From NCBI GenBank assembly GCA_020722985.1, contig DYJU01000001.1, positions 4,943 to 68,942 on the forward strand: a DNA stretch of 64,000 nt, in the 5' to 3' direction. Both the position numbers and the translations under genes were made by a program. The notes below the pieces were generated by a model. That model was not told the origin of the DNA. It worked only from the letters and a program-made list of their open reading frames with translations, and searched no databases. The stretch is from Candidatus Methylomirabilis sp. (GTDB lineage: Bacteria > Oederibacteriota > PGYV01 > DYJU01). Positions 17,836 to 48,787 of this stretch are shown in pieces (positions within the stretch are counted from its first letter, which is position 1; every line of letters starts with the position of its first letter).

Positions 17836-17843
17836 ATGTCATT

Positions 17844-27105: not shown

Positions 27106-27111
27106 TTTTAT

Positions 27112-28716: not shown

Positions 28717-28722
28717 TTAAAT

Positions 28723-30785: not shown

Positions 30786-31856
30786 ATGAAAGTAAGAATC
30801 TTTTTATCAGTTTTATTAATTTTTATAATTTTTATCAATTGTAAAAAGCAAGCCCCAGGTGAAGCGCCTGAGAGTATTTTTAATAAAGCAAATAATTTTA
30901 TGGTAAAAAAGGAATATTCCCTTGCCATAGAATTATATTATAAACTTTTAAATGAATATCAAAATTTTAAAAAATACAGGTCGGATGTTATTTATCGTTT
31001 AGGTTTTTCACTTTATAAAACTGAAAGGTATGATGAAGCAGAAAAGATCCTTTTGCTTTTATTAAATAAATATAAAAACTATCCTAAAATAAAAAACGCT
31101 TATATTATGCTTATTCATATTTATATTCAGATTTTAAGAGACGAAGAAAAAGCATTAAAATTATTAAATATTTATAAAAAAGAATTTGGAGAAGATGAAA
31201 ATTATTATGAAATAAAAAAGACATTGCTATTTTTAAAAACAGATGATAAAGCGTTAAGTATTTTAAAACTTAAAGAAAAAGATATTGTTATAGTTAATGA
31301 CACCATTGTTGATTATTACGATAAGGAAATTTTCCCTGTTATAAATTATGAATTAAAAGCAAGAATATCAAATAATAAAAAAATGTTTGTTGAAAGAAAA
31401 AAAATAAAAGAAGGATATTATTTATTTTTAAAAAATTTGATCAATAATAAAACCACAAAAATCCATAGCAGTAAAAATGGTTATGCTCCACAATGGTCAT
31501 GGGATAACAGGTTGATATTATTTACTGCAATGGATTGGGATAATGAAGAGAGAAAAATAAAAATATATGATTTAGGAAAAAATAAAAGTAATATGATATT
31601 TAAAGGGAAAAATATTGGAAGTATTTTATGCATTTCTCCTGATTCAACTAAAATCATTTTTAGTTATGTTGGAAAATATTGGATTATAAATAGCAATGGG
31701 TCAAATGTTTCATTACTCCATAAAAATTTAAACAGTTCAGATATTGAATTTATGGCGTGGTCAAGAGATAGCGATAAAATACTGGTAAAAAAAAGAAAAG
31801 AAAAAAAATACCATATATTACAGCTTGGAAAAAGAGAAATAAGTATATTTAAATAA
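30786..31856 (+). CDS. Lipoprotein with N-terminal TPR repeats and a C-terminal TolB-like PD40/WD40 beta-propeller
   Basis: A lipobox-like FINC ends the signal peptide. TPR motifs follow (AIELYYKLLNEYQNF...). PD40-like repeats come next (SSKNGYAPQWSWDNRLILFTA; ISPDSTKIIFSY; MAWSRDSDKIL). Confidence 0.5.
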   Translation: MKVRIFLSVLLIFIIFINCKKQAPGEAPESIFNKANNFMVKKEYSLAIELYYKLLNEYQNFKKYRSDVIYRLGFSLYKTERYDEAEKILLLLLNKYKNYPKIKNAYIMLIHIYIQILRDEEKALKLLNIYKKEFGEDENYYEIKKTLLFLKTDDKALSILKLKEKDIVIVNDTIVDYYDKEIFPVINYELKARISNNKKMFVERKKIKEGYYLFLKNLINNKTTKIHSSKNGYAPQWSWDNRLILFTAMDWDNEERKIKIYDLGKNKSNMIFKGKNIGSILCISPDSTKIIFSYVGKYWIINSNGSNVSLLHKNLNSSDIEFMAWSRDSDKILVKKRKEKKYHILQLGKREISIFK

Positions 31857-31867
31857 AGGAGGATTAA

Positions 31868-33724
31868 ATGAAAAAATTATTAAGTTTTTTGTTCTTGTTT
31901 TTTATTCTTTTTAATTTTTTGTCCCTTGCTTCTATTGAAGAATATAAAAAAGCAGTTGAACTTGAAAAAGATAATGTCATTAAAAGATTTAATCTGGGAC
32001 TTGCATATTATAAAGAACAGATGTTTGATGATTCAATAAAAACATTTAAAGAAATGCTTGAACTTAACAGGGCAGATATAGAATCTCATAAAAAAGTTGA
32101 TGCAACTGCAACTCAACTTATAGGTATAATTTATTTTAATTATAAAGAAAATGATGATGAATCTATAAAATATTTTAATAAAACAATGGAATTAAATCCT
32201 TCTGACCCGGACAATTATTATTATGCTGGACTTGCTTTTTTAAGAAAAAACGATTTAGAAAAAGCATTATCAATGTTTTTAGAAAGTTTAAAAAAAGGTA
32301 TTAAAGATACAACTGATGTTAATTTCAGGATTGGTTTGATTTATTATAAGAAAGGCATTTATGGAGAAGCACAGAAGCATTTTGAAAATGTTATTAAAGA
32401 AAAATCAGACCATATAGAAGCCCTGGAACAATTAGGGCTTATTTATCATAAAAGAGAAAATTCAAAAGAAACGATAAGAGTTTTTAAAAAGGTGGTAAGG
32501 ATAAAACCCGATGATTTTAATGCATATTACCTTTTAGGACTTAATTATTTTAAAGAAAAACAATATGAAAAAATGATAGAGGCATATAAAAAAGCAATAA
32601 CGATAAATCCTGATTTTGCAGATGCGCATTATAATCTCGGTATGGCTTATTATTATAGAAATATGTATGAAGATGCAATAGAAGAACTTGAAAAGGCAAA
32701 AAAATTAAATCCAGATGATCCTGCTACTTATTCTTTTTTGGCACAGGTAAAAACAACTGCTTTTGAATATCATTTAAGTAAAGGAACAACATATTTAACA
32801 GAAGAAGAATATTATAAAGCCAAAAATGAATTTGAACTCGCTTTAAAAGCAAAACCTGGTGATGGTGAAGCAGAAAAATATAAAAATAAAGCGCTTGAAG
32901 CAATAAAAAAGGAAATACCTTTCCGTCTTGAAAAGGCAGATAAATATTTTAAAGCAGGTAAATATTCTGAGGCATTTACAGAATGGAATGGTGTAATTGA
33001 GATAGACCCTGAAAACAGCGAAGCAAAAGAAGGATTAAAAAAGATAGAAAAAAATTTAAGCGATATTATAAATGCACGAGAAAAAAAGGCTAAAGACCTG
33101 TTAGGTGAAGGGAAATATACTGAAGCGTTAAATGAATATATTGAACTTAAAAAAGTAATTCCTAAAACAAAACTGGCTGCTGTTAATGAAAAAATAACGA
33201 AAATAAGAACAAAATTAAAAATAAAAGTTGCTACGCTTTTAAACGATGCTGAAAAATATTTAATAGGAGAAAAAAAGAATTATAAAAAGGCACTTGAAAA
33301 ATATAATGAAGTGTTAAAATATGATGAAAATAACGAAAAAGCATTAAACGGAATAACAAAAATAAATTCCAAAATTGAAGAAGATAAAGAAAAATATTTA
33401 GAATATGGCAAACAAAATATGAAAAGCAATAGGATTAAAGCTTTAAATTATTTTAAAAAAGTTTTAGAACTTGACCCTAATAATAAAGACGCAGATAAGT
33501 TTATCCAGGAATTAACAGGTGAAGAATCAAAACAGGCTAAAGATGCAAAACAGATCAGGACGCTTTATTATGAAGGTGTTGATAAGTATGTAAATGGCGA
33601 TATAGAGCAAGCAATCGCAATCTGGCAAAAAGTTTTATCAATTGATCCCGGTCATATTGAAGCAAAGAAAAATATGCAAAGGGCAAAGGAAAAACTCGCT
33701 GCTATTAAAAGTCTGACTAAATGA
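31868..33724 (+). CDS. Multi-TPR repeat protein, 618 aa
   Basis: It has a signal peptide and at least ten TPR units (for example AYYLLGLNYFKEKQYEKMIEAYKKAITINPDFADAHYNLGMAYY). Confidence 0.65.
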   Translation: MKKLLSFLFLFFILFNFLSLASIEEYKKAVELEKDNVIKRFNLGLAYYKEQMFDDSIKTFKEMLELNRADIESHKKVDATATQLIGIIYFNYKENDDESIKYFNKTMELNPSDPDNYYYAGLAFLRKNDLEKALSMFLESLKKGIKDTTDVNFRIGLIYYKKGIYGEAQKHFENVIKEKSDHIEALEQLGLIYHKRENSKETIRVFKKVVRIKPDDFNAYYLLGLNYFKEKQYEKMIEAYKKAITINPDFADAHYNLGMAYYYRNMYEDAIEELEKAKKLNPDDPATYSFLAQVKTTAFEYHLSKGTTYLTEEEYYKAKNEFELALKAKPGDGEAEKYKNKALEAIKKEIPFRLEKADKYFKAGKYSEAFTEWNGVIEIDPENSEAKEGLKKIEKNLSDIINAREKKAKDLLGEGKYTEALNEYIELKKVIPKTKLAAVNEKITKIRTKLKIKVATLLNDAEKYLIGEKKNYKKALEKYNEVLKYDENNEKALNGITKINSKIEEDKEKYLEYGKQNMKSNRIKALNYFKKVLELDPNNKDADKFIQELTGEESKQAKDAKQIRTLYYEGVDKYVNGDIEQAIAIWQKVLSIDPGHIEAKKNMQRAKEKLAAIKSLTK

Positions 33725-34764
33725 AAGGAAATATACAAATGAAAGTAACTATTTATGATGTGGCTAAAAGGGCAAAAGTTTCAATATCAACAGCATCAAA
33801 GGCATTAAATGATAGACGTGATGTGAGTGAGGCAACCAAACAGCGCGTTCGGGAAATTGCAAAAGAATTAAACTATGAACCATCACATTTTGCAAGAGCA
33901 TTAGCCTCGCGTAAGACAAATAATATTGGTGTTATTACAGTAAGATATTTTAAAACTCCGATTCTCACGAACCCTTTTTATTCAAAAATAATAGAAGGTA
34001 TAGAAGAACAATTGATAGGAACGGAATTTAATCTTTTAACCAATATTTTAAACAAAGAACAATTAAAAAGTATGGAAATTCCAAGAATGATAAAAGAAAA
34101 AAATGTAGATGGTGTTATACTTATGGGACATATGAATAAAGAGTTTATAGATATGCTAAATCAAAAAGGCATTCCTGTGGTTATGATAGATAATTATTTT
34201 GAAGGCACACCAATAAAATATGTAATTGCTGATAATATTGACGGTGCTTATCAGATCGTGAGTTATCTTATCAATACAGGACATAAAAAAATTGCATACC
34301 TTGCTGTTTCAAAAGAAAGATATAGTTTTGTAGAAAGAGAAAAAGGTTACAGGAAAGCACTTGAAGGAAAAGGGATTCCAATTGATGAAAGATTCATTAT
34401 ATACAGTTCTGAGCAAGGGGATGAGCAGGATTATAGCTGGATGAAAAAAGTATTTGAATATGATGAAAAACCAGATGCTTTATTTTTATGCAATGATGTA
34501 AATGCAATACTTGCTTTAAATATGTTAAATAATATGGGCATTAGGGTTCCTGATGATATAAGTGTTGCAGGATTTGATAACATTGATTTAACTCAGCATT
34601 TCATTCCATCAATAACAACAGTTGATATACCAAAAGATTTGATGGGGAAAAAAGCAGTTGAAATATTATTAAACATAATTGCAAAGAAAAAAGAAGGAAT
34701 AGAAAATATAATTTTTCCGACACAACTTATAATAAGAAATTCAACAAAAGAAAGAAAAAGTTAA
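33721..34764 (+). CDS. LacI-family transcriptional regulator
   Basis: It has an N-terminal helix-turn-helix (VTIYDVAKRAKVSISTASKALND) and a periplasmic-binding-protein-like sugar-binding core. Confidence 0.8.
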   Translation: MKGNIQMKVTIYDVAKRAKVSISTASKALNDRRDVSEATKQRVREIAKELNYEPSHFARALASRKTNNIGVITVRYFKTPILTNPFYSKIIEGIEEQLIGTEFNLLTNILNKEQLKSMEIPRMIKEKNVDGVILMGHMNKEFIDMLNQKGIPVVMIDNYFEGTPIKYVIADNIDGAYQIVSYLINTGHKKIAYLAVSKERYSFVEREKGYRKALEGKGIPIDERFIIYSSEQGDEQDYSWMKKVFEYDEKPDALFLCNDVNAILALNMLNNMGIRVPDDISVAGFDNIDLTQHFIPSITTVDIPKDLMGKKAVEILLNIIAKKKEGIENIIFPTQLIIRNSTKERKS

Positions 34765-34818
34765 AATTCAATTTTTATTATAAAAAAATTTTTTATTAAA
34801 CAAACAAAAGGATTATTT

Positions 34819-36015
34819 ATGAAAATAAAAGAAAATTTAATATTATATCTATTTTTATTATATGCCTTATTTGCAGTTGTATCAATAACAATATCGGAAT
34901 TTTTTTTTATTTTAACGCTTATATTATGTATTTGTGAGATAATAAAGAAAAAAATAGATATAAAAAAAATTTTTTCAACGCCTGTCGCTTTGCCTGTAAT
35001 TATTTTTATTATTTTTCATTTTATATCGGCACTTTTTAGTATAGACCATTTTAATAGTTTAAAAGATATGAGGAAAGTTTATTTAATATTGATGTTTTTT
35101 TTAAGTATATATTGCCTTGATAATACAGAAAAAATAAAAGCAGTTTTAAATGCTTTTACTTCAGGAGCAGGTTTTGTAGGATTATATGCTATTATAAATA
35201 GTATTTATTTTAAATATATAAAAGGGATTTCTGATTTTAGAGCAACTTCTTTTTCTGGTAATCATATGCATTTAGGTGGAATGCTTATGATGGCTTTGAT
35301 CATAATTTTTATATTATTGATATATTCTATAAAAGAAAAACAAAAAGTTAAAACTTTTTTTTATACTATAACTTTTATTATAGTTTTTTTGGGGCTTTTG
35401 TTTACCTATACACGTAGTTCCTGGATTTCCGCTATTTCTGGTATACTTTTAATTTTATTTATTTTAAATAAAAAATGGTTTTTAAGTGGCATTGCAGTTT
35501 TATTTTTGTTATTTATTTTATTTTTTAATACTTCGTTTGCCCAGCGAATTGTAAGAACCGTTTCCTTTTTTTCAAATGATTCGGGTGCGGAAAGAATTTA
35601 TATGTGGAAAAGCGGGCTTAATATAATCAAAGATTATCCTTTAACCGGCATAGGGACAGCCAACCTTGAAAAAATATATCCGCGTTATATTAATAAAAAT
35701 GCAAAAGAAAAAAATCAGGGGCACATGCATAATAATATTTTACAGATTGCAGTAATTGATGGTTTGCCTGGACTCGCTGCTTTTTTATGGATTTTTATTG
35801 CGATTTTTATTTATTTTTATAAAAATTTTATAAAAGCAAAAGAAACCTATTTAAAATATATTTTACTTTCTGCTTTTTCAATTAGTGTTTCTTTTTTTAT
35901 TAATGGTTTTTTTGAATATAATTTTTTTTCTTCGCAGGTTGTATTGATTTTCTGGTTTTTAATAGGAACTGGTGAAGCTGCAAAAAGGTTGATAATAAAT
36001 GACCATGCAAATTGA
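34819..36015 (+). CDS. O-antigen ligase or polymerase family membrane protein (WaaL/Wzy_C domain)
   Basis: It has about twelve transmembrane helices and a Wzy_C block (TYTRSSWISAISGILLILFIL) with a periplasmic loop. Confidence 0.65.
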   Translation: MKIKENLILYLFLLYALFAVVSITISEFFFILTLILCICEIIKKKIDIKKIFSTPVALPVIIFIIFHFISALFSIDHFNSLKDMRKVYLILMFFLSIYCLDNTEKIKAVLNAFTSGAGFVGLYAIINSIYFKYIKGISDFRATSFSGNHMHLGGMLMMALIIIFILLIYSIKEKQKVKTFFYTITFIIVFLGLLFTYTRSSWISAISGILLILFILNKKWFLSGIAVLFLLFILFFNTSFAQRIVRTVSFFSNDSGAERIYMWKSGLNIIKDYPLTGIGTANLEKIYPRYINKNAKEKNQGHMHNNILQIAVIDGLPGLAAFLWIFIAIFIYFYKNFIKAKETYLKYILLSAFSISVSFFINGFFEYNFFSSQVVLIFWFLIGTGEAAKRLIINDHAN

Positions 36016-37111
36016 TAAAAGAAAAATAAAAAAAATTCTTATTTTAAGACCCCGAGCAATAGGAGATGTGATCCTGACAACTCCATTTATAAGAACATTA
36101 AGAAAAGAATTCCCGCAGGCACAGATTGATTATGTTGTAGAAGAATTTGTCAAGCCTGTTTTAGAAGGCAATCCCCATATCTCCAATATTATTATACTAA
36201 AAAGACATAAATTAAAAAAAGAACCGGAAAATATAAAAGCAATAAAAAATAAGTTGAAAAAGTCAATGCCTTCTGTCAAAATAATAGAAGATATTAGATT
36301 TTATCTAAAACTTATTAAAGAAAGATATGATATTGTTTTTGACCTATGGGGCAATTTAAGGACAGCCCTTATAAGCTTTTTGACAGGAGCAAAGTATAGA
36401 GTCGGTTTTACCTTTCGTTTTAGAAAATATTTTTATAATATAAGGGTAAGACCTGATATTATCCCAAAGTATAATGCCAATTACCACCTTGATCTTTTGA
36501 GAGCAATAGGTGTAGAGCCAGATTCGGATAGAACTGAATTTTATTTTAATGAGAGTGATGATGAATTCATTAAAAATTTTTTAAAAAACGCAGGTATAAG
36601 AGAAAATGATGCTATTATTGGATTAAGTGGTTCGGGGTCATGGGTTACTAAAAGGTGGTTTGAAGAGAAATTTTCAAAACTGGCTGATATTATACTTAAA
36701 GAGATAAAAAATTCAAAAATCATCATCTTATGGGGACCGGGTGAAAAACAAATGGCAGAAAAGATAATAAACGGTATAGAATCAGATAAGGACAGGGTTT
36801 TTTTAGCGCCAGAGACAAATTTAAAACAGTTTGGCGCTTTGATTAAAAATTTAACACTTTTAATTACCAATGATGGTGCAGCAAGCCATATTGCTGTTGC
36901 AGTTTCAACTAAGTCAATAACTATTTATGGTCCTACAAACCCTATTTCCTGGTCACCAGAAGGAAATAAAATGCATTTAACTGTTTCGCCTTTGATAAAA
37001 TGTGCTCCATGTGATAAAACCATATGTCCTTCTGGAACAATAGAATGTATGAAAAAGATAGATGAAAAGGAAGTTTTTGAAAAAGTAAAAAATATTCTGG
37101 AATTAAGTTAA
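35999..37111 (+). CDS. Glycosyltransferase family 9 (ADP-heptose:LPS heptosyltransferase-like, RfaF/RfaC/RfaQ family)
   Basis: The N-terminus reads KKILILRPRAIGDVILTTPFIRTLRKEFPQAQIDYVV, which is typical of GT9. The C-terminal block is LLITNDGAASHIA. Confidence 0.75.
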   Translation: MTMQIDKRKIKKILILRPRAIGDVILTTPFIRTLRKEFPQAQIDYVVEEFVKPVLEGNPHISNIIILKRHKLKKEPENIKAIKNKLKKSMPSVKIIEDIRFYLKLIKERYDIVFDLWGNLRTALISFLTGAKYRVGFTFRFRKYFYNIRVRPDIIPKYNANYHLDLLRAIGVEPDSDRTEFYFNESDDEFIKNFLKNAGIRENDAIIGLSGSGSWVTKRWFEEKFSKLADIILKEIKNSKIIILWGPGEKQMAEKIINGIESDKDRVFLAPETNLKQFGALIKNLTLLITNDGAASHIAVAVSTKSITIYGPTNPISWSPEGNKMHLTVSPLIKCAPCDKTICPSGTIECMKKIDEKEVFEKVKNILELS

Positions 37112-37137: not shown

Positions 37138-37803
37138 ATGGTTGATATTGATATAGATAAAATACTTGAAAAAACTGAAAAGATGGAGGAAGAAAAGAAA
37201 AAGAAACAAAAAGTAATTTTAATTTCAATTACTTCTGCCACTGTAATTTTACTTGCGATTTTTATATTTTTTTTAATAAATATTATTTTAGGTGAAAAAA
37301 GCACAGTTTATTACCCATTAAAGAGTGGAATTAAATTTATTTATAATAAAAAGAATCAAAGTCCAGAAGAATGGGAAATTTTAAATAAAATAGAAAATAT
37401 AAATAATTATGAGTGCAAAATTTTAAATGTTATTGACAAAGGAACGTTTTCTTCAACACAGGAATATTATTATACAGGAAAGAAAGAAGGAATAATAAGG
37501 ATGGCAATATCAAAAGATTATGGGAAAAAAATAAAAGCAGGTTTTAAATTACTTCCTGCAAGAATAAAAAAAGGCATGGAATTTAAAACAGGGAAAATTA
37601 AAGATAAAATTATTAATGCAAAAGTTGAAGAAAAGGAAACTTTATCTTTACCTATTGGAACTTTAACTACTTACAGGGTTCATTATAAGGCAGAACCATA
37701 TTATGATGAAATAATATGGTTTGCAAAAAATACTGGAATAGTAAAAAAAGTTGATAATGTAAATAATACAGAATTAAATATTATTAATATGGAAGAAAGA
37801 TGA
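37138..37803 (+). CDS. Hypothetical membrane-anchored protein
   Basis: It has one N-terminal transmembrane helix and no recognised motif. Its stop overlaps the MCP gene start in an ATGA arrangement. Confidence 0.35.
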
Positions 37804-39446
37804 ATATAAATAAATTTATTTTAAAGAAAGATTTTTTATTTTATATTGCATTAGGTTCATTATTGCTGGTTATGATTTTGTTTTCTATAGTAAATTCTTA
37901 CACAAAAAAGCAAATTGCAAAAAGCAATGAAATTATTGAAAAAAATTTATCGGATATATCAATCCTGTCTATCATATATTCGGATTTAAAAAGTTATACT
38001 GCTAAACTTATCTTAATCAGGAATTTAAAATGGAATAATTCATCAAAAATAAAATATTTAAGCGTTAAATTTAATAAACAAAAAGAAAATATCCAGAAGA
38101 TAAATAAAGAATATATAAAAAATTTATTAACTTCTTTTTTTGAAAATTTAAAAGAAATAGAACCGGATAAAACTTCAACTAAAATTTTAACAGAAAAGAT
38201 AAATAAAAATAATGGATTTTTAAAAAAAATTGATACTTCAATTCAACTGTTAAAAGCAGAAATAAATAAAAGCAGGGCAAATTTAAAACAAATTTCTGGT
38301 TCATCTGGAATTATTTTTATAGTTGTTGTTTTTATTATATTGATAATTTCCGGATGGGGGTTTTATTATAATTATAATGCAATAAATATAACAAAATCTT
38401 TTATTGAAAAATGGCAAATAGAAACTTCCATTATCGAAAATTTTGGAGAATTTTTTAGCATTAAAGAAAAATTAAATGAATTTTTATCAGAAGTAAAAAA
38501 AGCAAAATTAATTGAAAAAAATACAGAAGAAAAAATTAAATTAATTAAAGATGCATTAATAAATGTTATAACTTCTTTTTCTGAAATTTCACTTGCTGCT
38601 GATTCTGTATCAACTGCGTCTCAGGAACTTGCAAAAAAAATTACAGGGTATTCTGATAGTATAAAAAGCACAAAAGATTTGACAATCAATATGGCAAATG
38701 ATACAGAAAAGATAAGAACAGAAACAAATAAGGGGGCTGTTTATTCACAAAAAATGAATGAAACAGCAAAGGCAGATGAAGACACTATCGTTTCAATTAT
38801 AAAAGAAATTGAATCAATGCATGGGGTTATAAATGATTTAAATAACGTAATAGGTAATATGAATACTAAAGCAACAGAAATAAGTAAAGTGGCTTCTTTG
38901 ATAAAAGAAATAGCAGAGCAGACTAACCTTCTCGCTTTAAATGCTTCAATAGAAGCAGCAAGGGCAGGGGAGGCTGGCAGAGGTTTTGCTGTTGTTGCCG
39001 AAGAAATAAGACAACTTGCAGAATCTACAGGTAGTGCGTCCAAAAAGATTTCAGAAGAAGTAAGAGAAATAAATAAAATAACTAATCTTACAGTTGAAAA
39101 AATAAGTGGGGCAACCAAAAGAATAAATGCAAGTGTGAGTGTTGCAAATGATGTTGCAATTTCATTCCAGAAAATAAAAGATTCAATTGAAGAAACAATG
39201 CAGGTATCGGGCAATATTTATAATTTAACAAATGATGAAGTAAACAAAATACAGAGCATAGTTGGAATAATTAAGGATGTTGAAAGTATAATTGATGAAA
39301 TGGCTTCAAATATAGAAGGCATATCAGCTTCCATTGAGCAGGAAACTGCAAGCATTGAAAATTTGCGTTCGTCCTTAGAAGAGATTTATCAAAAATCCGA
39401 AAATATACGGCTTGATATAGAGAAAATCAGGAAATCTGAAAATTAA
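37800..39446 (+). CDS. Methyl-accepting chemotaxis protein
   Basis: It has two transmembrane helices and a highly conserved MCP signalling hairpin ([41 protein letters not shown]). Confidence 0.8.
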
Positions 39447-42400
39447 ATGCCTTATCTATTTTTTTTTATTAAAATTTTAATTTTAATTTTTAATATATCA
39501 TTATTTGCCGAAGAAAAAATATCAGATAACGCTGCCAATACTCAAAATGTAACAATTGGAAATTATGTTTTTAAAGGACCTGAAAATTTAAGGGCACAGG
39601 TAGATGGGATACAGGTAAAATTGATATGGGATTCAGTTAATTTACCGGGAATAACATATAATATATACAGAAGCACAGAAGAACAGGGAGAATATTTAAA
39701 AATAAATAAAGAAGAAATAAAAATAAATGAATATATTGACAATAAAAAAAATAGTATAATGTCATTGTTAAGCAGTATTAAATATTTTTATAAGGTGTCT
39801 GCCGTTGATTCCGGGAAGGAAATAGGGGAATCCAATATAGTATTTGCTGTCCCTACAGGCAGTCTTTTACCGCCAGATGAAGTAAATGTTGTCCCTTATC
39901 CTGATAAGGTTTTGATAAAATGGGTAGAACCTGATTCAACAGGCGAATATGAAATTGATGGATATAATATTTTCAGGTCAATTGATGATAAAGAAGAGGG
40001 TATAAAATTAAACAAAGAGTTAATAAAGGGTTTTGAATACGAAGATAAAGATATTGAACAGGGAGTAAAATATTTTTATAAATTGCAGAGTGTTGATGTC
40101 AGGGGAAATACTTCTGCATTTTCTAAAAGTTATGAGACAATGCCTTTTTCACTTATCTCAGAACCACTTGATGTTACTGCTTATGCTAAGTCAAGCGAAA
40201 GTATAAAAATTGCCTGGTCAGAGCCAGATATAAAAGGGACATATGGCATAGGTTATTATAATATATTCAGAAGTGAAAATCCTGATTCTTTTCCTGAAAA
40301 ACCGATTAATATTAAACCTGTAAAAACTTATTATGACGAAGAAGGAAAAGTTTTTTATTTTGATAATATAATAAATAGCACCGAACCGCCACAGCCCGGG
40401 AAAAATTATTATTATAAAGTTGTTCCTGTTGATGCAGAGGGGCACGCAGGAGTTGCAAGTAAAGTTGCAGGAGCAAATATAGAGATTTTGAAACTAAAAA
40501 AATCCGGAATTATTTCTGCTGAAATTTCAGAATACGGGCTTCCACCAGATTCAAATTTAAAGATATCGGGAAGTAAACAAATAGAGTTATCCTATAAATA
40601 TGTATTTGAAACAGGTAAAATTCCACAGCGAACCAGATTTGACATTAAGCAACCACTTAAAGTTAAAGTGGAAGGAAACATAGGCAAAAAAATAACTGTG
40701 GAAGTTGACCATGATGATGACAGGACTCAGGATGAACAAAGGAAAATATCAATTAAATATCAAGGTGATAAAGAAGAGACCATACAGGAAGTAAATTTCG
40801 GTGATATAACACTTTCCATACCTGCAACGAGATTTGTAAGTTATTCACAGTCATTGTTCGGTATTAATGCAAAAGCAAAATTTGGTGATAAATTTACGCT
40901 TTCTGCAATTGCGGCGCAGACAAAAGGTATAACAGCCAAACAGACTTTTAAAGGCAATTTAAGGGAAAAAGAAGTAAACGGTAAAATAGGTATTTTTATA
41001 ATGGATACAGATTTTATCAAAAATACATATTATTATATAACAAAAGAAAATATTCAAATAAAACCAGGTTCGGTAGTTGTTTATGTTGACAATGCCAATG
41101 CGTATGATTCAAACATTTATACCAGAAAGTCATATCCGACAGGCAAATTTGAATTTGACTTTAAATATTTAGGGCTTGATTATACAGTTGATTATAAAAA
41201 TAATATAATTAAGTTTAGTTTTCCGATATATGATAATTATATAATTGCAATTGCTTATGAAACAATGGATGGAAGAAAAATAGGTTTTGATGCAAGTGGT
41301 AATTTTGATTTTAATGAAGCAAATTTAGTTTCTGATACCAACGGTATGACATCTGAATATGCACATCTTATTCAGGATGGAACAATGCAAAACCCCAAAG
41401 ATATATCACATAAAGTTTTAAGTTATTATTATCTGGGCGATACGCAGATTTTTGACCCTAAACTGGATCAGGATTTTGAAATAAGAATATATGATATGTC
41501 AGATAAAGAATATTATATACCTAAACCAACAGACCCTGATGCTGATAAATGGTATGAAATAGATACGGATTTTGGTTTGCTTAGATTTAAAAGTTATTAT
41601 CCTTTTGTTTATCCAAATAATTCACCCTGCGATCCTGCAACAAGCAATACAAGAATAGGAACAGAAGATGATGCATATAAAACCTATCCACCAGTTAGTT
41701 CAAGATATAAAATATATTTAAGATATAAATATTATGTTTCATCTTATAAACTTGATTATCCCGGTGTAGTATATGGAAGCGAACGTGTATATTTAAATGG
41801 CAGATTATTAAAAAAAGATGTAGATTATTATATTATATATGAAACCGGAGAAATAAGTTTTATTGATAAAAATTTGATTCAATCAGATTCTGAAATTATA
41901 ATTACTTATGAATATTTTCCATTTTTTCAGGCATTCCCGAGTAATCTATATGGAGCAAGGGCAGAGTATAAATTGCTTGATAATTTATCTCTGGGCTCTA
42001 CTTTTCTTTATAAAAGCGCAAATACAAGTAGTAAAACTATTCCGGATGCAAGGTCCACATATCAGGGACTTTCAACGCCATACAGTATGTATATATTAGA
42101 TGGTGATATCAAATTTGATTTAAAAAAAGATCAGATAAATAAAATACTGGACGCTTTACCACTTATTGAAAATTCTGAAGTGCCTGTTGATTTTTCATTC
42201 CAGGCTGAAATAGCCCATAGCAATTTTAACCCCAATATATTTGATAAAAATAATGAGCATGGCGTTGCTATGATAGATAATATAGAAGGTGCTGATAACA
42301 TAATTAGCACATCAATGGATCTAAATTACTGGTTCCCGGCGAGTAGACCACAGGCATCAGATATTTCAACTGATAGAATTCAGATAAGAAAATCAAATAT

Positions 42401-45400
42401 AACAGATGTTGATCCCGCACCGAGTTCAGGTACTGATATATACGGGACATCAGATAGAAAAATTATGCTCCAGTTAAATTATGCTAACTTAACGAGTTCA
42501 AGATGGGATGCATATAGATATTTAATTTCTTCCTATGGCGAAAATTTAAATAGTTATTCATATATTGAAATGTGGATTTATACAACACAGCCAATTGAAA
42601 TTGGCTTTGATCTCGGAGTAATCAGTGAAGATTCAAATGGGAATGGTATTTTAAATACTGAAGATAACTCTGGTGGTAGGCCAAATGGTATTTTAGAATC
42701 AGGCGAAGATATCGGGATAGATCAGTCAGGAAACGAATACTGGGGAGGAGGAAATGGTTTTTTAGATACTGAAGACATGAGTAATAATGGGATTTTGGAT
42801 ACATATGATGCATATTACCAGTATAGAAAAACACTTACAGAAACCGGCAGGTGGATAAATTTAAAAATTGATTTAAAAAAGATAGGAGAATTTGTAGGAT
42901 ATAATGTTACAACTGATCCAGCAAATAAGAATTTTCTTTCTCTTGTGAAACATTTAAGATTAGTTATAAGAGGCACTTCGGCAACGCCTGTAAATGGTTA
43001 TGTAAAAATATCATCAGTTGATATTACCGGGAATTCATGGGTTTTAAAAGTTATGCCAAATTCTTATGACAGGGTAGGTAATAAAATTGACTCTCCTGAT
43101 GTAAACAAATTTAATATGACAACTGTAAATCAATATACAGATTCTTCGTATATTCCGAATACCAGTTTTTTTGAATATCAGAGTGAAGAAGATAAAAAAT
43201 CAGAAAAAGGATTAAAAATAAATTATGAACTGTCAAATTATGATTTTAGAACAGATGGTAAACCTATTTATTTTGCAACCAAGGATTTAAGCAGGAGTAT
43301 AGGATATGATTATTCGGCATTTAAAAAATTAAGGTTTGATATTTTATATTCAAAAAAAGATGGTAGTTCTGGTTCCGGAAAAATATTATTTATACGCCTG
43401 GGTACCGGAACATCAGATGATAATAATTATTATCAGTATAACACTCAATTAGATGAAATACCTGTAGATAATGCATGGCATACCATTGAATTAAGACTGG
43501 ACGGTTCAGATAAAAAAAGAAGCGAACCTGTTGGTTCGCCCAATTTAAAACAGATAAATTATATTTCAATAGGTGTTATTAATCCTAATTCAATGTCTGT
43601 AAATGAAATTTTTTATATAAATAATATAAGGTTAACAGATCCGGACGAAAAGGTTGGCTCAGGTAAATATACCAATGCTACAATTAATTATTCTAATTTT
43701 GGAACTTTATCGCATTCTTTTGAAGAAAAAGAAAGTGATTTTATGACAATTGCTGATATAGGAAGTTCTATAGTAAAACAGCATTCCCGTAAAAATTCTA
43801 TAAATTTTAATTATAACCAGATTTCTTTTTTACCGGTAAATAACTCATATTCAAAAGAAGAATTATTTACCGAGGGTAAATATAGAAATGACCCTGAATA
43901 CACAAGTAATTATATAATACCTGATATCGTCAGAGAAAGTTTTACAAATTCAACAACATTCAGTTTAGTCCCAAACCTTACACTTATCAATAATCTAACA
44001 AAAGAAAACAGTAAAAACAGATATGTAAAAGTTTATACATATAAAGATTATGATTATGAAAAATTAAAAACTGTGCCTTCTGCCCGCTATATAGTTCCTG
44101 CTGAAATTGAATTACCAGCAGGTTTTAAGGTGCCGCTCGGAAATAACACCATAGAAGGCAATATTGCTTTTACAGATGAAAGATATAATTATATTCAGCC
44201 AGAACCAATTACCATCTGTGCTGACTGCTTTGATCAATGGAAATTGAGCAGGGAGCAAAGTTATAAATGGACAGGTAATTATAAAATTGACAGACTAACT
44301 TTATCCCCTGGTTATCAATATTCGCTTAATGAAATAAAAGGGAATGTTCAATCTATATATACTTATTATCAGGATAGGATAAGCCCTGATAAAAAATATG
44401 TGGATGATTATATACTTTTAAAACGAAGTATAATACCAGCGCTATCTTTGTCACTTGGTGAAATTTTGATTTTTAATCCACAGATTTCTTATCAAACAAA
44501 CTATACTATGGATTATTCACAGAGAAATCTATCAACAACAGGTAATTTTTCTTTTATGACAAAGGTAGAATTAAAAAAATTACTTGACTTTTTACCAGAC
44601 ATCAGCACATATAATATCAGTATAAACATTGTTGAAAACTATAATGATGCATATTATGCGGATTCAACGAAAGAATATGAAAAGTTAAGTTTTGAAACAA
44701 AGTGGTTTATTAATTCCTGGGAGAATATATTTAACATTAAAAAAATAGAGGAGTTAGAAAACATATCCTATAATGGTTCATTAAGATTAAATCATAATTT
44801 AAATTTTTCAGAAATAAAATTACTTGATAGAATTTCTATTTCGCCGGGCTTCGAATATGGTATTTATAGGAGTTCATATTCAAGGATTTTAAACACATTT
44901 ACAAATACAATAACTTTGAGTGTTTATAATATACAAATTTTTAATGTTAATATTCCAGGATTGGAAAAATTTATAAGAAATGAAACAATATCAGGTAAAT
45001 ATTCGTATAATAATACGAAAACCATAAACCCAACAAATAAAGAAGAGATAATAGCTGAAAATTCAAATCAACAGGTAAGCGCAACCTTAAATTTTAAAGA
45101 TTATGATGCAAATGAAAATCCGCTTACAGGCCAGATTGGCATTACATATAGCAATAAAAATAACAAAAACAAAGAGATTTTAACCTCGGAAAATATTTTT
45201 ACACCTACGTTTCAAATTAACTATCAGTTAAAATTTGGAGAACCATTTGTTTTTCCCTCATGGATGCCATGGATTGGTGGAAAAGCATTTAAGTTAGAAC
45301 ATATATTACAGTGGCAGAATTCAATGGCAGTTACAATAACAAGAGGCGATGAAAAAGGCGGAACTGGTGCAAATAAACAATCAAATGAAAAATATACAGC

Positions 45401-45545
45401 TTCAACAGAATTTTCTTATAATTTTCTTGAAAATTTTAATGGAATTTTCAGGCTGACCTATGAAAATAATGTGGATAGGATAAAAGATCCCAAGTATTCA
45501 TATAGTTCAATAGAAATTTCTCTTTCTTTCAGTGCATATTTTTAA
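39447..45545 (+). CDS. Giant 2032-aa outer-membrane-associated protein with four N-terminal Fn3 repeats and a long beta-rich region of about 1,650 aa ending in Phe. It may be a very large beta-barrel, possibly SprA/Sov-like.
   Basis: It has a signal peptide. The Fn3 repeats carry YNIYRS/YNIFRS ... YFYK/YYYKV motifs. The rest is rich in alternating Y, N, S and T beta-strand-like sequence. The C-terminus ...IEISLSFSAYF is an OMP-type aromatic end. Its ATG directly abuts the MCP stop codon (aatTAAATG). Confidence 0.45.
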   Translation: MPYLFFFIKILILIFNISLFAEEKISDNAANTQNVTIGNYVFKGPENLRAQVDGIQVKLIWDSVNLPGITYNIYRSTEEQGEYLKINKEEIKINEYIDNKKNSIMSLLSSIKYFYKVSAVDSGKEIGESNIVFAVPTGSLLPPDEVNVVPYPDKVLIKWVEPDSTGEYEIDGYNIFRSIDDKEEGIKLNKELIKGFEYEDKDIEQGVKYFYKLQSVDVRGNTSAFSKSYETMPFSLISEPLDVTAYAKSSESIKIAWSEPDIKGTYGIGYYNIFRSENPDSFPEKPINIKPVKTYYDEEGKVFYFDNIINSTEPPQPGKNYYYKVVPVDAEGHAGVASKVAGANIEILKLKKSGIISAEISEYGLPPDSNLKISGSKQIELSYKYVFETGKIPQRTRFDIKQPLKVKVEGNIGKKITVEVDHDDDRTQDEQRKISIKYQGDKEETIQEVNFGDITLSIPATRFVSYSQSLFGINAKAKFGDKFTLSAIAAQTKGITAKQTFKGNLREKEVNGKIGIFIMDTDFIKNTYYYITKENIQIKPGSVVVYVDNANAYDSNIYTRKSYPTGKFEFDFKYLGLDYTVDYKNNIIKFSFPIYDNYIIAIAYETMDGRKIGFDASGNFDFNEANLVSDTNGMTSEYAHLIQDGTMQNPKDISHKVLSYYYLGDTQIFDPKLDQDFEIRIYDMSDKEYYIPKPTDPDADKWYEIDTDFGLLRFKSYYPFVYPNNSPCDPATSNTRIGTEDDAYKTYPPVSSRYKIYLRYKYYVSSYKLDYPGVVYGSERVYLNGRLLKKDVDYYIIYETGEISFIDKNLIQSDSEIIITYEYFPFFQAFPSNLYGARAEYKLLDNLSLGSTFLYKSANTSSKTIPDARSTYQGLSTPYSMYILDGDIKFDLKKDQINKILDALPLIENSEVPVDFSFQAEIAHSNFNPNIFDKNNEHGVAMIDNIEGADNIISTSMDLNYWFPASRPQASDISTDRIQIRKSNITDVDPAPSSGTDIYGTSDRKIMLQLNYANLTSSRWDAYRYLISSYGENLNSYSYIEMWIYTTQPIEIGFDLGVISEDSNGNGILNTEDNSGGRPNGILESGEDIGIDQSGNEYWGGGNGFLDTEDMSNNGILDTYDAYYQYRKTLTETGRWINLKIDLKKIGEFVGYNVTTDPANKNFLSLVKHLRLVIRGTSATPVNGYVKISSVDITGNSWVLKVMPNSYDRVGNKIDSPDVNKFNMTTVNQYTDSSYIPNTSFFEYQSEEDKKSEKGLKINYELSNYDFRTDGKPIYFATKDLSRSIGYDYSAFKKLRFDILYSKKDGSSGSGKILFIRLGTGTSDDNNYYQYNTQLDEIPVDNAWHTIELRLDGSDKKRSEPVGSPNLKQINYISIGVINPNSMSVNEIFYINNIRLTDPDEKVGSGKYTNATINYSNFGTLSHSFEEKESDFMTIADIGSSIVKQHSRKNSINFNYNQISFLPVNNSYSKEELFTEGKYRNDPEYTSNYIIPDIVRESFTNSTTFSLVPNLTLINNLTKENSKNRYVKVYTYKDYDYEKLKTVPSARYIVPAEIELPAGFKVPLGNNTIEGNIAFTDERYNYIQPEPITICADCFDQWKLSREQSYKWTGNYKIDRLTLSPGYQYSLNEIKGNVQSIYTYYQDRISPDKKYVDDYILLKRSIIPALSLSLGEILIFNPQISYQTNYTMDYSQRNLSTTGNFSFMTKVELKKLLDFLPDISTYNISINIVENYNDAYYADSTKEYEKLSFETKWFINSWENIFNIKKIEELENISYNGSLRLNHNLNFSEIKLLDRISISPGFEYGIYRSSYSRILNTFTNTITLSVYNIQIFNVNIPGLEKFIRNETISGKYSYNNTKTINPTNKEEIIAENSNQQVSATLNFKDYDANENPLTGQIGITYSNKNNKNKEILTSENIFTPTFQINYQLKFGEPFVFPSWMPWIGGKAFKLEHILQWQNSMAVTITRGDEKGGTGANKQSNEKYTASTEFSYNFLENFNGIFRLTYENNVDRIKDPKYSYSSIEISLSFSAYF

Positions 45546-45556
45546 AAGGAGGTATT

Positions 45557-48500
45557 ATGAGTTTAATAAAAAAAATTTTTTATATAATAATAATTACTTC
45601 AATGCCTGTTTTTTTATCTGCTGAGATTTTACCGCCTTCTTCAGTAAATCCTGTAAGATGGGATGATGGAGTTGAAATTATATGGCAGGATGCTGTTTCA
45701 ACAACGAATGTTTCTTATTATATAATTTACAGATCGACCTTTGAAAATTTAACCGAGACATATTATGATGTTACATTTTCAACAGGCACAAACGTAACGC
45801 GTTATGTTGATAGTTTAATAAATACCTATGATGTTTTTTATTATGCTATCCAGACAGTTGATTCAGCAGGCAATACCAGTGTTTTATCATCTGTAAAACC
45901 TGCTTTCCCTTATAACCTGACAATTACAGCTTTTAACTCAAAAAATTTTTTAAAATGGAATAACAAATTTTTAAGTTCGTGTAGTTTTAATATTTATAGT
46001 AGTACAGATGCACAGGGGAATTTCACATCAATTGCAAGCACAATAACAGCAGGAGAATATATAGATACTGAAGTTATAAATGGATTTACATATTATTATA
46101 AAATAGGTGTTATTTACAATTCGCAGGAAGCGCCTTTATCATCAACAAAATCTGCTATACCTTTTGTAAATCCATTTTCGCCTGCAAATTTATCGTATTC
46201 TGTAAATATTGATACTTCGGGAAATACAAATGTAATTATCACATGGTCATCTGAAAATACAAAAGGAACCTATCCTGTATCAGGATTTAAAATTTTCAGG
46301 TCATTAATTTATGATGATGAAAATGATTTTTCTGCTTTTTCAACGTCAACGGGTTATGTGGATACTTTACCTGCACCCGGATATAAATATTATTATAAGA
46401 TAATGACAGAAGATATAAAAGGTAATACTTCTTTGCCTTCCTATTTTTCGGTATATATAAATGGTCAGCCATCAGCGCCTTTAAATCTCACAATTACCTC
46501 TTCTGGTATTGAATCTGTAAATCTTATGTGGGATACAAATTTAAGTTATGAAAATGTAACTGCTTATGTTGTTTACAGGGCAACTTATGAAGAAATTGGT
46601 TTGACATCTTTTAATTTTTATATTGATAATATTACTTTTTCACCCGGGGAAACAATAAATTATCATGTGCGTGCTTTAAATGCATCTGGATTAAGTGATT
46701 TTTCAAATGCTGTTACAGTAACAGTGGTTCCTAAAAAACCTTCAAATTTTAATGTTTATCAGGATGAACCCGACAAAGTCAATCTAAACTGGGATGCAAA
46801 TGGTACAATTGAAAATATAAAGATATATAATATTTATAGAGTTGTGCCGCCTGCAACAATTGATATTAACAATCCATATTATGTTTTGACAACAGAAACA
46901 GTAGCAGGAACTATTGAGTGGCAGGATTCAGCAGTAAATACAGGCACATTTTATAGTTATGCTGTGGCAGGTGTTACATTAAATGCTTATTCACAGTATG
47001 TAACAGGAATTGCAACATCTGCGCTTTATATAACACCTGTTTCAATACCTGCAATTCCTGTTAATTTAACGATCACAGCTTTTAATTCCTATGTTTTACT
47101 TTCCTGGGTTGAAAATGATGAAAAAGAAAAAATAGCAGGATATAATATATTTAGAAGTACTGATGATATTTTTTATGAGAATATTACAAAAGTAGTAAAT
47201 AACTATTATTATGATACAGGACTTAATACATATACTGTTTATTATTATAAAACTAATGCTGAAAATTATCTGGGCTGGTCATCAACCTTAACTGCTTATG
47301 TTTTTGCTATACCTTATGCGTTAAATTTTATAGATAATCCAAGAAACGTAACCTTATCATCAAAAGGAGATGGAAATTTATTTTTACAATGGTCGGCATC
47401 GCCGCCTGAGGATTCTGTTACAAAATACAATATTTACAGGTCAACAGTTTCAGGAATTTATGAAGCAACCCCATATACTTATACACAGGTTACATATTAT
47501 ACTGATACATCTGTAACAGCAGGAACACAATACTTTTATAAAATAACAGCTTTTGGGGTAACAGAAAGTGCAGCATCAGATGAAGTGAACGGAATACCAT
47601 ATTTAAAACCATATCCGCCGACAAATATAGAAATTGTTAATTTGCATAATAAGGTTTTATTAAAATGGACTGCTCCTGCTTTAAAAGGCACATATCAGAG
47701 TATAGATCAGTATAATATTTATAAAAGCACATCTTCCAGTAATTTTACTCTTATAGAATCAAAAACCACTGAAAATTATTTTATTGATAGTTCTGTAAAT
47801 ACAGGATATTCTTATTATTATAAAATAAAAACAGTTGATGATAATAACGAAGAAGATACAGATACCACAAATTATTATATAAATCTCATTGATACATCTT
47901 TTCCGCCGGATACTCTTATTGCATTTGCAGGAGAAAACTGGGTTACCTTGAACTGGAAAAGGGTTACTTTAACTGCTGATTCATATAATATTTATAAAAG
48001 CACTACATCAGGTAATTATGGAGAACCTTACATTTATTCTTTGGGCGTAAATCAATACAAGGAATTTACGGATTATAATGTCCAGAGGGGAATTACATAT
48101 TATTATACTATAACTGCAATTAATTCAGCAGGTGAAGGTCCTAAATCAAATGAAGTTGAAATTACACCATATCTTACAGCAAGATTACCTGAAAATCCTT
48201 TAATAAGATATACATTAGAAAACAAGAAAAACATCCATCTTTACTGGGATAAGGCAATAGATGGCGATTATCCGGTTGTGGGATATAATATTTTGAGGAG
48301 TAAAGATGGTGGAGCAAATTATGAAACTTTAGGTTTTGTAACAGCAACAGCTACTCCTGATTTTTTAGATGATAAGACAGAGTGGGGTAATATTTATTAT
48401 TATATGATAAGAACTGTTGACTCTAAATCAAATCAGGATGCTATATATCCTGTTTTAAAGGTTGAATTGCCGGTGCCTGAAGATAAAATAAGAGTTTTTG

Positions 48501-48787
48501 CCAATCTTTTTGATTTGAGCAAAAATGAAAAATTAAAATTAAAATATCAGGCAGTAAAAAGTGGAAAAATAAGGATAAAAATTTATACATTAAGTGGTAA
48601 TTTTGTAAAAACTTTATTAGAAGAAGAGGTACCGGAAGGAACTTCTTCAGAAAATCCTTATGAAAGTCATGAATTTTTCTGGGATGGAAAGAATTCCAAT
48701 GGAGAAAAAGTTGCATCCGGAGTTTACATTATAATACTTGAAACAAAAGATAAAAAAGTTATGGCAAAGGTGGCAGTGGTGAAGTAA
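45557..48787 (+). CDS. Secreted 1076-aa protein with about ten Fn3-like repeats and a T9SS-type, FlgD-Ig-like C-terminal sorting domain
   Basis: It has a signal peptide. The repeats show YNIYRS/FRST ... YYYKI motifs. The C-terminus reads KIRIKIYTLSGNFVKTLLEE...FFWDGKNSNGEKVASGVYIIILE. Confidence 0.65.
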   Translation: MSLIKKIFYIIIITSMPVFLSAEILPPSSVNPVRWDDGVEIIWQDAVSTTNVSYYIIYRSTFENLTETYYDVTFSTGTNVTRYVDSLINTYDVFYYAIQTVDSAGNTSVLSSVKPAFPYNLTITAFNSKNFLKWNNKFLSSCSFNIYSSTDAQGNFTSIASTITAGEYIDTEVINGFTYYYKIGVIYNSQEAPLSSTKSAIPFVNPFSPANLSYSVNIDTSGNTNVIITWSSENTKGTYPVSGFKIFRSLIYDDENDFSAFSTSTGYVDTLPAPGYKYYYKIMTEDIKGNTSLPSYFSVYINGQPSAPLNLTITSSGIESVNLMWDTNLSYENVTAYVVYRATYEEIGLTSFNFYIDNITFSPGETINYHVRALNASGLSDFSNAVTVTVVPKKPSNFNVYQDEPDKVNLNWDANGTIENIKIYNIYRVVPPATIDINNPYYVLTTETVAGTIEWQDSAVNTGTFYSYAVAGVTLNAYSQYVTGIATSALYITPVSIPAIPVNLTITAFNSYVLLSWVENDEKEKIAGYNIFRSTDDIFYENITKVVNNYYYDTGLNTYTVYYYKTNAENYLGWSSTLTAYVFAIPYALNFIDNPRNVTLSSKGDGNLFLQWSASPPEDSVTKYNIYRSTVSGIYEATPYTYTQVTYYTDTSVTAGTQYFYKITAFGVTESAASDEVNGIPYLKPYPPTNIEIVNLHNKVLLKWTAPALKGTYQSIDQYNIYKSTSSSNFTLIESKTTENYFIDSSVNTGYSYYYKIKTVDDNNEEDTDTTNYYINLIDTSFPPDTLIAFAGENWVTLNWKRVTLTADSYNIYKSTTSGNYGEPYIYSLGVNQYKEFTDYNVQRGITYYYTITAINSAGEGPKSNEVEITPYLTARLPENPLIRYTLENKKNIHLYWDKAIDGDYPVVGYNILRSKDGGANYETLGFVTATATPDFLDDKTEWGNIYYYMIRTVDSKSNQDAIYPVLKVELPVPEDKIRVFANLFDLSKNEKLKLKYQAVKSGKIRIKIYTLSGNFVKTLLEEEVPEGTSSENPYESHEFFWDGKNSNGEKVASGVYIIILETKDKKVMAKVAVVK

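Follow-up and report, generated by a model that had tools for sequence, protein, structure and literature searches.

The 64-kb window analysed here (64,000 nucleotides of contig DYJU01000001.1, assembly GCA_020722985.1, with positions counted from its first letter) comes from a Candidatus Goldbacteria metagenome-assembled genome (MAG), and its letters recur unchanged within contig CCYMCF010000055.1 of assembly GCA_973628015.1. At 37138–48787 the window carries a run of four genes, built around a giant outer-membrane protein of 2032 residues which resembles SprA/Sov, the outer-membrane translocon of type IX secretion systems (T9SS). The gene for this protein stands between that of a methyl-accepting chemotaxis protein (MCP) and that of a secreted protein made of Fn3 modules and ending in a C-terminal sorting domain (CTD). 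The genes of the run, as defined by open reading frame (ORF) calling, and the two parts of the giant protein are the following:

37138–37803, + strand: gene for a 221-aa bitopic membrane protein (ORF calling)
37800–39446, + strand: gene for a 548-aa MCP (ORF calling; PF00015)
39447–45545, + strand: gene for the 2032-aa SprA/Sov-family outer-membrane translocon homologue (ORF calling)
39576–40469, + strand: three tandem Fn3 modules (residues 44–133, 141–230 and 239–341) forming the mature N-terminus of the SprA-like protein (custom Fn3 hidden Markov model (HMM); Pfam fn3)
40479–45545, + strand: SprA-homologous core (residues 345–2032), with SprA_N-like strands, cap inserts including a CBM11-like jelly roll, and C-terminal long β strands ending in Phe
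45557–48787, + strand: gene for a 1076-aa Fn3-CTD secreted protein (ORF calling)

The four genes are packed closely. The stop of the 221-aa gene and the start of the MCP gene overlap by 4 nt, the MCP stop codon and the ATG of the giant gene are contiguous (aatTAAATG), and the spacer between the SprA-like stop and the 1076-aa gene contains the ribosome-binding site AAGGAGG, so that the gaps along the run are −4, 0 and 11 nt, with Shine-Dalgarno sequences. An earlier note on this DNA had pointed to the direct abutment of the MCP and the giant gene, and the ORF limits (37800–39446 and 39447–45545) bear it out. Is this spacing meaningful? Taken alone, the abutment is not beyond chance, because tight spacing is ordinary in this compact genome: 17 of the 31 same-strand neighbour pairs of the window are separated by 15 nt or less. 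It counts only because the arrangement is kept across relatives whose SprA-like proteins are 37–45% identical. A promoter and terminator scan was uninformative: promoter-like sites are at shuffled expectation in this 29% GC DNA, and no + strand terminator was found within the operon.

What is the 2032-aa protein? Its NCBI database name is 'hypothetical protein', and a single-sequence phmmer search of the PDB returned only Fn3 proteins (e.g. titin), SprA surfacing with profiles only. Among the NCBIfam models there is one match, to TIGR04189 ('T9SS outer membrane translocon Sov/SprA'), with E=5.7e-55 and 186.3 bits over three stretches. The relatives score between 138 and 224 bits against this model and straddle its 200-bit cut-off (loci L026 224, L042 182, L062 166 and L053 138 bits). 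A profile built from 53 homologues, with the Fn3 region trimmed off, matches SprA of Flavobacterium johnsoniae (6H3I_A; E=4.4e-68, 233 bits) as the sole PDB family; profile positions 33–208 align to SprA 144–331 and positions 230–1047 to SprA 429–1577. The first of these two regions is equivalent to Pfam SprA_N (PF14349), which is annotated (precomputed) on relatives P0023 and P0029–P0033. Comparison by hhalign with a 2410-aa SprA_N protein gave a probability of 100% (E=9e-50, 946 columns). Judged by these alignments, the 2032-aa protein is a divergent SprA/Sov translocon homologue with a core of ~1690 residues, in which homology to SprA extends across two thirds of the length. The earlier note had suggested a SprA/Sov-class translocon or another very large barrel, and the TIGR04189 and 6H3I_A matches support the former.

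Residues 833–2032 were modelled with AlphaFold2 because the C-terminus was unmatched by sequence (mean pLDDT 86.9, 44-sequence alignment). The model has 30 long strands, four at its start and 26 consecutive antiparallel ones in the last 650 residues. A Foldseek search of the PDB with this model placed four SprA chains at ranks 1–4 (8GL6, 8GL8, 6H3I and 6H3J; E=1.6e-42 to 2.3e-34, TMq 0.52–0.54), the next match being MtrB at E=4.9e-6, and all structural neighbours outside the jelly-roll subdomain are outer-membrane barrels, with SprA far ahead. The core of the protein is thus predicted to adopt the fold of SprA, a giant outer-membrane β-barrel, over the modelled residues. The ends of the polypeptide agree with such a location. 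It starts with a signal peptide of ~21 residues (N-terminus MPYLFFFIKILILIFNISLFA followed by EE), has no internal hydrophobic or transmembrane (TM) helix by hydropathy and ends in ...SLSFSAYF; the barrel-type Phe that the earlier note saw there is found in 51 of the 53 homologues. A terminal Phe is typical of barrels inserted by the β-barrel assembly machinery (BAM), and with a Sec signal peptide and a C-terminal aromatic residue the protein has the marks of a BAM substrate. Could the giant protein be a soluble or surface adhesin instead, of the β-helix or repeat type? The N-terminal Fn3 modules, the CBM11-like jelly roll and a composition rich in Tyr, Asn, Thr and Ser would all suit an adhesin, but we reject this reading, and give it next to no probability, because of the strand run, the ranking of SprA before all other structures and the conserved terminal Phe. 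The structure check for a soluble β-helix or adhesin, which the earlier note had called for, gave no such fold.

The N-terminal part of the channel is of another kind. The custom Fn3 HMM gives 70–85 bits for each of three modules, and any further match lies below 2 bits; the earlier note was right about N-terminal Fn3 modules, and its count of four becomes three. These modules are absent from Elusimicrobiota homologues and from canonical SprA_N proteins. Where is this arm located? As a general rule both termini of an outer-membrane protein face the periplasm, which is why the Fn3 arm is probably periplasmic. One Fn3 subtype (W...YNIYRS...YYYKV.AVD) is common to the channel N-terminus and the downstream 1076-aa protein. 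The possibility that the channel modules are recent copies of those in the cargo was considered and rejected, identity being 14–33% in all comparisons, within or between the two proteins.

The protein encoded directly after the channel has a signal peptide, ten Fn3 modules (residues 25–966; 45629–48454) and a CTD (residues 987–1076; 48515–48784). Its last 100 residues match the CTD of PorZ (E=9e-10) and that of PorU (E=4.8e-6), and its CTD scores 24.3 bits with Pfam FlgD_ig (cut-off 27). The description given in the earlier note, an all-Fn3 protein with a sorting domain that would be a matching cargo for the channel, therefore holds, with ten Fn3 modules and a CTD like those of T9SS type-A cargo; in 19 loci, deeper FCPU426 relatives included, a gene of this kind comes directly after that of the SprA-like protein. 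Two further proteins of the window are likely cargo and exceed the cut-off of the T9SS sorting-domain model TIGR04183, so that cargo with a C-terminal sorting domain is present:

22–1710, + strand: 562-aa DUF11-repeat protein with a T9SS type-A CTD, further likely cargo (TIGR04183 23.7 bits, cut-off 23; PorU CTD E=2.6e-11)
20812–23436, + strand: 874-aa DUF11-repeat protein with a T9SS CTD, further likely cargo (TIGR04183 24.6 bits, cut-off 23; PorZ CTD E=7.6e-13; CHU_C E=1.9e-5)

An iterated search with the three CTDs of the window showed that 47 ORFs in the flanks of SprA-like genes, from different lineages, have a CTD-like domain at their extreme C-terminus. Is the Fn3 protein exported by the machine, or is it a part of it? 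It might be a structural component, for instance a surface-exposed one for attachment or shuttling, like PorU and PorZ of Porphyromonas. Its length is conserved in the Goldbacteria clade (~955–1174 aa), its gene is fixed directly downstream in the 19 loci, the best matches of its CTD are to PorZ and PorU and its Fn3 subtype recurs on the channel, all of which would fit a machinery part. It has, on the other side, no PorU- or PorZ-like catalytic or propeller domain; its length runs from 429 to 2512 aa in deeper relatives; it is absent beside many FCPU426 and all Elusimicrobiota homologues; and the Fn3 modules of the two proteins, at 14–33% identity, are no closer than those within one protein. 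We consider a machinery part rather unlikely and prefer a cargo.

A T9SS translocon has partner barrels of the PorV/PorQ family, and one member of this family is encoded ~9 kb upstream of the SprA-like gene, at the head of a syntenic block conserved in the Goldbacteria clade. The block contains:

28723–30783, + strand: 686-aa outer-membrane protein with a PorV/PorQ-family barrel (residues 38–320), immunoglobulin-like (Ig-like; FlgD_ig/CTD-like) repeats and a C-terminal OmpA peptidoglycan-binding domain
30786–33724, + strand: a pair of TPR proteins, 356 aa and 618 aa long (TPR Pfam matches; conserved in the block)
33721–37111, + strand: a LacI-family regulator (347 aa), a Wzy_C/O-antigen-ligase-like membrane protein (398 aa) and a GT9 lipopolysaccharide (LPS) heptosyltransferase (370 aa), overlapping or tightly spaced

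By profile score the 686-aa protein belongs to the PorV/PorQ family: it reaches 99 bits with NF033709 (PorV_fam, cut-off 90), matching the whole profile, with further matches to T9SS_PorQ (E=1.5e-20) and OmpA (PF00691, E=6e-17). The equivalog models of PorV, PorQ and PorE all score far below their cut-offs. Barrel, Ig-like repeats and OmpA domain are fused in one polypeptide, an architecture that is conserved in the clade, and we know of no PorV/PorQ-Ig-OmpA fusion from a Bacteroidota T9SS. The window thus holds three hallmarks of a T9SS, namely a translocon, a PorV/PorQ-family barrel and CTD cargo. The 356-aa TPR protein has a weak match to a TolB/PD40-type β-propeller (TIGR02800, E=6e-6), and both TPR proteins are possible periplasmic scaffolds whose domains recall PorE and PorW; a role in T9SS would be an inference. 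In this clade the LacI/Wzy_C/GT9 block, too, keeps its place upstream of the SprA-like gene. The Wzy_C and GT9 genes are called as a single 757-aa fusion in one relative (L083:5996-8269), which hints that both act together.

How widespread is the SprA-like protein? A scan of one genome per species gave 176 relatives, of which 79 loci were kept. The closest named relatives come from Candidatus Goldbacteria/Goldiibacteriota and FCPU426. The database search returned full-length relatives of 2030–2170 aa and 28–90% identity from Goldbacteria, FCPU426 and 'Spirochaetia' MAGs, nearly all of them unnamed proteins, together with a shorter 1765-aa relative from a Firestonebacteria MAG, and some relatives carry Pfam SprA_N. 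The homologues fall into two forms. Those of Goldbacteria/Goldiibacteriota and FCPU426 have 2030–2330 aa and N-terminal Fn3 modules; those of Elusimicrobiota, Sumerlaeota, Desantisbacteria, Aerophobetes and a few MAGs labelled Clostridia or Ignavibacteria have ~1650–1850 aa and no Fn3 modules. In Goldbacteria the order of the block is PorV/Q-OmpA, TPR, TPR, LacI-type regulator, Wzy_C, GT9, 221-aa gene, [MCP], SprA-like gene, Fn3-CTD, MutL, MiaA, MFS, DUF4416, the bracketed MCP being present in part of the loci. One group of Elusimicrobiota loci has a PorV/PorQ-like gene (NF033709 E=7e-15, PorV2 N-terminal match) and an M6-metalloprotease-CTD gene 2.5–4 kb upstream of the SprA-like gene (L062:3925-5421, L063:5392-7092). 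The other neighbours in Elusimicrobiota and deep FCPU426 are mostly housekeeping genes (PGK, GAPDH, AspRS, GreA, MetK, CoaD, ClpB); divergent lptF/lptG flank the SprA-like gene in 36 of these loci and a ComF-like phosphoribosyltransferase gene lies downstream in 31 (examples of such neighbours are L061:8276-9439, − strand, and L057:19162-19911, + strand). Neighbours of this kind suggest that the envelope gene is old and has been kept by vertical descent. The flanking by lptF/lptG, seen in L017–L081, is an unexpectedly stable link of the SprA-like gene to LPS-export genes. ABC-ATPase homologues that recur downstream in distant loci were considered as T9SS-related and rejected as generic ABC transporters.

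These neighbourhoods raise another possibility. Is the SprA-fold barrel a housekeeping envelope protein, acting in LPS, lipoprotein or outer-membrane biogenesis, in a lineage that has no true T9SS? The gene stands next to divergent lptF/lptG in the 36 distant loci and otherwise among housekeeping genes, and in the Goldbacteria clade it follows O-antigen-ligase-like, LPS heptosyltransferase and LolA/YmcC-like genes; GldKLMN-type motor genes were seen in none of the flanks, and the literature confines T9SS to Bacteroidota/FCB. Several features of the loci do not sit well with such a role: homology and fold are specific to SprA, PorV/PorQ-family genes and CTD proteins co-localise with it in both Goldbacteria and Elusimicrobiota loci, and a CTD cargo gene is translationally adjacent. 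A link to LPS is in its own right a trait of T9SS, whose type-A cargo is anchored to A-LPS (PMC7463736). A housekeeping barrel is accordingly judged quite unlikely, and a secretion translocon remains the preferred reading.

The gene between the 221-aa protein and the translocon encodes a receptor of usual build, with two TM helices (~10–35 and 162–192, by hydropathy), a periplasmic domain of ~125 aa and a cytoplasmic signalling domain that matches PF00015 at E=5e-34 (118 bits, cut-off 34.6); Pfam detected no HAMP domain in it. Its orthogroup has 43 proteins, 32–100% identical and of 529–548 aa apart from two shorter, possibly partial ones (383 and 347 aa), and beyond these the database search shows a sharp drop to generic signalling-domain matches. 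Is its position next to the translocon gene a peculiarity of this genome? The earlier note had raised this as a point that would weaken the link, and the answer is no: the MCP lies between the 221-aa and SprA-like genes in 11 of 18 related loci with readable upstream sequence, and four further orthologs on contigs outside the set show the same four-gene arrangement in four of four cases. The MCP-to-SprA-like gap is −4 to +9 nt in nine of the 11 loci, the SprA-like start call being uncertain in the other two. In a neighbour-joining tree, which is weak, MCP-bearing loci occur across the clade, on basal and scattered branches, a pattern that fits ancestral presence of the MCP with at least three losses. 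A conserved MCP gene inside a translocon operon is an unreported arrangement.

Does the receptor work together with the translocon? In a coupled system its periplasmic domain may sense the cargo, the Fn3 arm or the 221-aa protein, so that chemotaxis answers the state of secretion or adhesion, or the receptor array may position secretion; the coupling would be functional and perhaps physical. In all contexts seen (the window, the 11 loci and the four of four extra contigs) the orthogroup occupies solely this slot, the coupling of −4 to +9 nt is kept at 37–45% SprA-like identity, and both Fn3 arm and MCP are restricted to the Goldbacteria/FCPU426 side of the family. Such a link is weakened by the seven of 18 informative operons without an MCP, by the poor conservation of the periplasmic domain (mean pairwise identity is 27%, compared with 65% in the signalling domain, and none of its residues is invariant), by the absence of che genes near the MCP and by the tight spacing that is normal in this genome. 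The translocon does not require the MCP, since several relatives have lost it cleanly. Flagellar genes are present in Goldbacteria but not in Elusimicrobia and Firestonebacteria (PMC7031533); this agrees with an ordinary role of the MCP in chemotaxis and explains its restriction to the clade. The receptor is thus a two-TM chemoreceptor of normal type from an orthogroup specific to this lineage, conserved but dispensable; a functional link to the translocon is unproven, and we consider it unlikely.

The first gene of the run encodes a 221-aa protein with an N-terminal TM helix (~residues 24–52, by hydropathy) and a 12-strand β domain of YmcC/LolA-like fold in the AlphaFold2 model (pLDDT 86.7). 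The best Foldseek matches are YmcC-like Bacteroides lipoproteins (4FVS, E=6.5e-6; 3FZX, TM 0.47), followed by EPDR1, RseB, LolA and LprG, all of them open barrels that bind hydrophobic ligands. The gene was found in 16 loci and always upstream of the SprA-like gene. As LPS genes adjoin it, one guess is that the protein handles lipid or LPS.

The rest of the window has some features of its own. Scans for Rfam families, tRNAs and base composition yielded no taxonomic marker in it. Thirty-two of its 34 non-nested ORFs of at least 150 aa are on the + strand, and an MscS-type channel gene (3129–4187) is the only annotated − strand gene; GC skew is positive almost throughout, and the window is therefore probably part of one leading-strand replichore. 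At 55623–64000 (+ strand) an ORF of at least 2792 aa with NHL/β-propeller repeats (PF01436, E=1.7e-52) runs past the 3' end of the window, so that its C-terminus, with any CTD there, lies beyond the sequence analysed; its DNA has 34–41% GC compared with ~29% elsewhere. A 1.9-kb stretch at 26863–28722 has no long ORF and contains truncated HicB-like and HicA fragments at 27668–27832 and 27919–28044 (+ strand), covering PF15919 profile positions 20–53 of 123 and PF07927 positions 29–58 of 58, respectively; by these partial matches they look like a decayed hicAB toxin-antitoxin pair. The region 15846–19097 (+ strand) holds a 188-aa DNA methylase ORF, followed by a 197-aa ORF that matches no family and by an AAA_14/DUF4143 ATPase. 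The methylase ORF matches only positions 37–220 of PF01555 and is therefore probably 5'-truncated or mis-started. This region may be a small mobile or defence islet.

What kind of system does the region encode? We read it, with a probability of about 0.72, as the central part of a type-IX-like secretion locus of Candidatus Goldbacteria, consisting of a divergent SprA/Sov translocon, a cargo with ten Fn3 modules and a CTD, a PorV/PorQ-family barrel and a probably co-transcribed MCP. Several observations weigh against this reading. The 2032-aa protein falls just under the curated cut-off of TIGR04189 (186 vs 200 bits), and Pfam SprA_N (PF14349) has no match in it at E≤0.01. Its C-terminal third is collinear with SprA and its sequence match there is not significant, so that this part is tied to SprA by predicted fold only; the model covers 1200 of the 2032 residues, and a full 36-strand barrel, the cap and the lateral opening fall outside what was modelled whole. 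The CTD of the 1076-aa protein lies slightly below the TIGR04183 cut-off (21.6 vs 23 bits, E=1.6e-4), in the correct extreme C-terminal position. A search confined to the 64 kb of the window and to 10-kb flanks at the 79 related loci found no GldK/L/M/N, PorU, PorT or PorW, and PorZ was seen neither in the window nor among the annotated conserved neighbours of these loci. A general envelope role would likewise be compatible with the conserved lptF/lptG and housekeeping neighbours of distant relatives. Seven of the 18 operons, otherwise intact, have no MCP, and in five of the seven the 221-aa gene abuts the translocon gene. The host and its relatives in FCPU426 and Elusimicrobiota also lie outside the group in which T9SS is expected: reviews confine the system to Bacteroidota or the FCB superphylum. 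Full-text searches of the literature turned up no paper connecting T9SS with Goldbacteria or with Elusimicrobia/Elusimicrobiota, and in the Goldbacteria genome paper T9SS occurs only in a cited reference.

How would such a system work? By analogy with F. johnsoniae (PMC7463736), CTD proteins would cross the inner membrane via Sec and pass from the periplasm into the capped SprA-like barrel. From the barrel they would leave sideways through a lateral opening, be bound by the PorV/PorQ-like protein and reach the cell surface (again by analogy, PMC7463736). The protein with ten Fn3 modules would be a dedicated, co-expressed cargo, probably a surface adhesin or coat, and the periplasmic Fn3 arm of the channel could dock this cargo or other machinery. 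The MCP is most likely simply co-transcribed, so that receptor and surface-protein export would be expressed together, with the receptor signalling to the flagellar Che system; it would have been held between the 221-aa LolA/YmcC-like gene and the translocon gene since before the clade diversified.

The locus is a solid lead for T9SS evolution and structure. A SprA homologue with PorV/PorQ-like genes and CTD cargo in a separate deep lineage points either to an earlier origin of the translocon or to an old transfer between lineages. A more ambitious version, which we regard as decidedly unlikely, is that a minimal SprA-PorV-CTD exporter, motor-less (without GldKLMN) or otherwise energised and sister or ancestral to the Bacteroidota T9SS, is common to Elusimicrobiota, Goldbacteria and FCPU426 by vertical inheritance, and that the Goldbacteria channel gained the Fn3 arm and a functionally wired chemoreceptor that couples chemotaxis with the export of surface proteins. 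Whether a SprA channel can do without the GldKLMN motor becomes directly testable with this locus. For structural work it offers a smaller and differently decorated SprA, with a core of ~1690 aa and an N-terminal Fn3 arm. Goldbacteria are rare cellulose degraders, and the locus suggests a way by which their many surface proteins and carbohydrate-active enzymes (CAZymes) may reach the cell surface.

How does the locus compare with known systems? Chemoreceptors are encoded in operons of other surface machines, PilJ in the pil-chp cluster of Pseudomonas and FrzCD in Myxococcus, and the likeness is that an MCP-family receptor is encoded together with the genes of a cell-surface machine. Those clusters carry their own CheA, CheW and CheY homologues, whereas none is adjacent to the MCP here; the partner here is a secretion channel instead of a pilus or a gliding motor, and the MCP is dispensable in some relatives. 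The CTDs of the window share with T9SS type-A cargo (TIGR04183/PF18962 class) an Ig-like domain of ~90 aa at the extreme C-terminus of Sec-exported multi-domain proteins, but their sequence lies between the TIGR04183 and FlgD_ig models, at or below the cut-offs. PorE, a T9SS lipoprotein containing OmpA_C, aligns through its OmpA part with the C-terminal OmpA domain of the 686-aa protein. PorE also has TPR and propeller-like domains, which here are encoded by neighbouring genes of the 686-aa gene, and the barrel, the Ig-like repeats and the OmpA domain are here one polypeptide. The closest counterparts are SprA of F. johnsoniae (6H3I/6H3J/8GL6/8GL8) and Sov of Porphyromonas gingivalis. SprA is a barrel of 36 strands that opens laterally and is capped on the extracellular side (PMC7463736). 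The Goldbacteria channel is like SprA and Sov in sequence homology, in the predicted fold of residues 833–2032, in its Sec signal peptide and terminal aromatic residue, and in its genomic company of a PorV/PorQ-family barrel and CTD proteins. It differs in its host, which lies outside Bacteroidota/FCB, in a core that is ~700 aa shorter (1690 vs 2400 aa), mainly in the cap inserts, in the three Fn3 modules that take the place of the first ~140 residues of SprA, and in the operon, which also encodes an MCP, a membrane protein of LolA-like fold and a fixed cargo. The locus is best classed as a divergent out-of-phylum variant of the SprA translocon, with a lineage-specific Fn3 arm and a fixed Fn3-CTD cargo, and not a new kind of machine.

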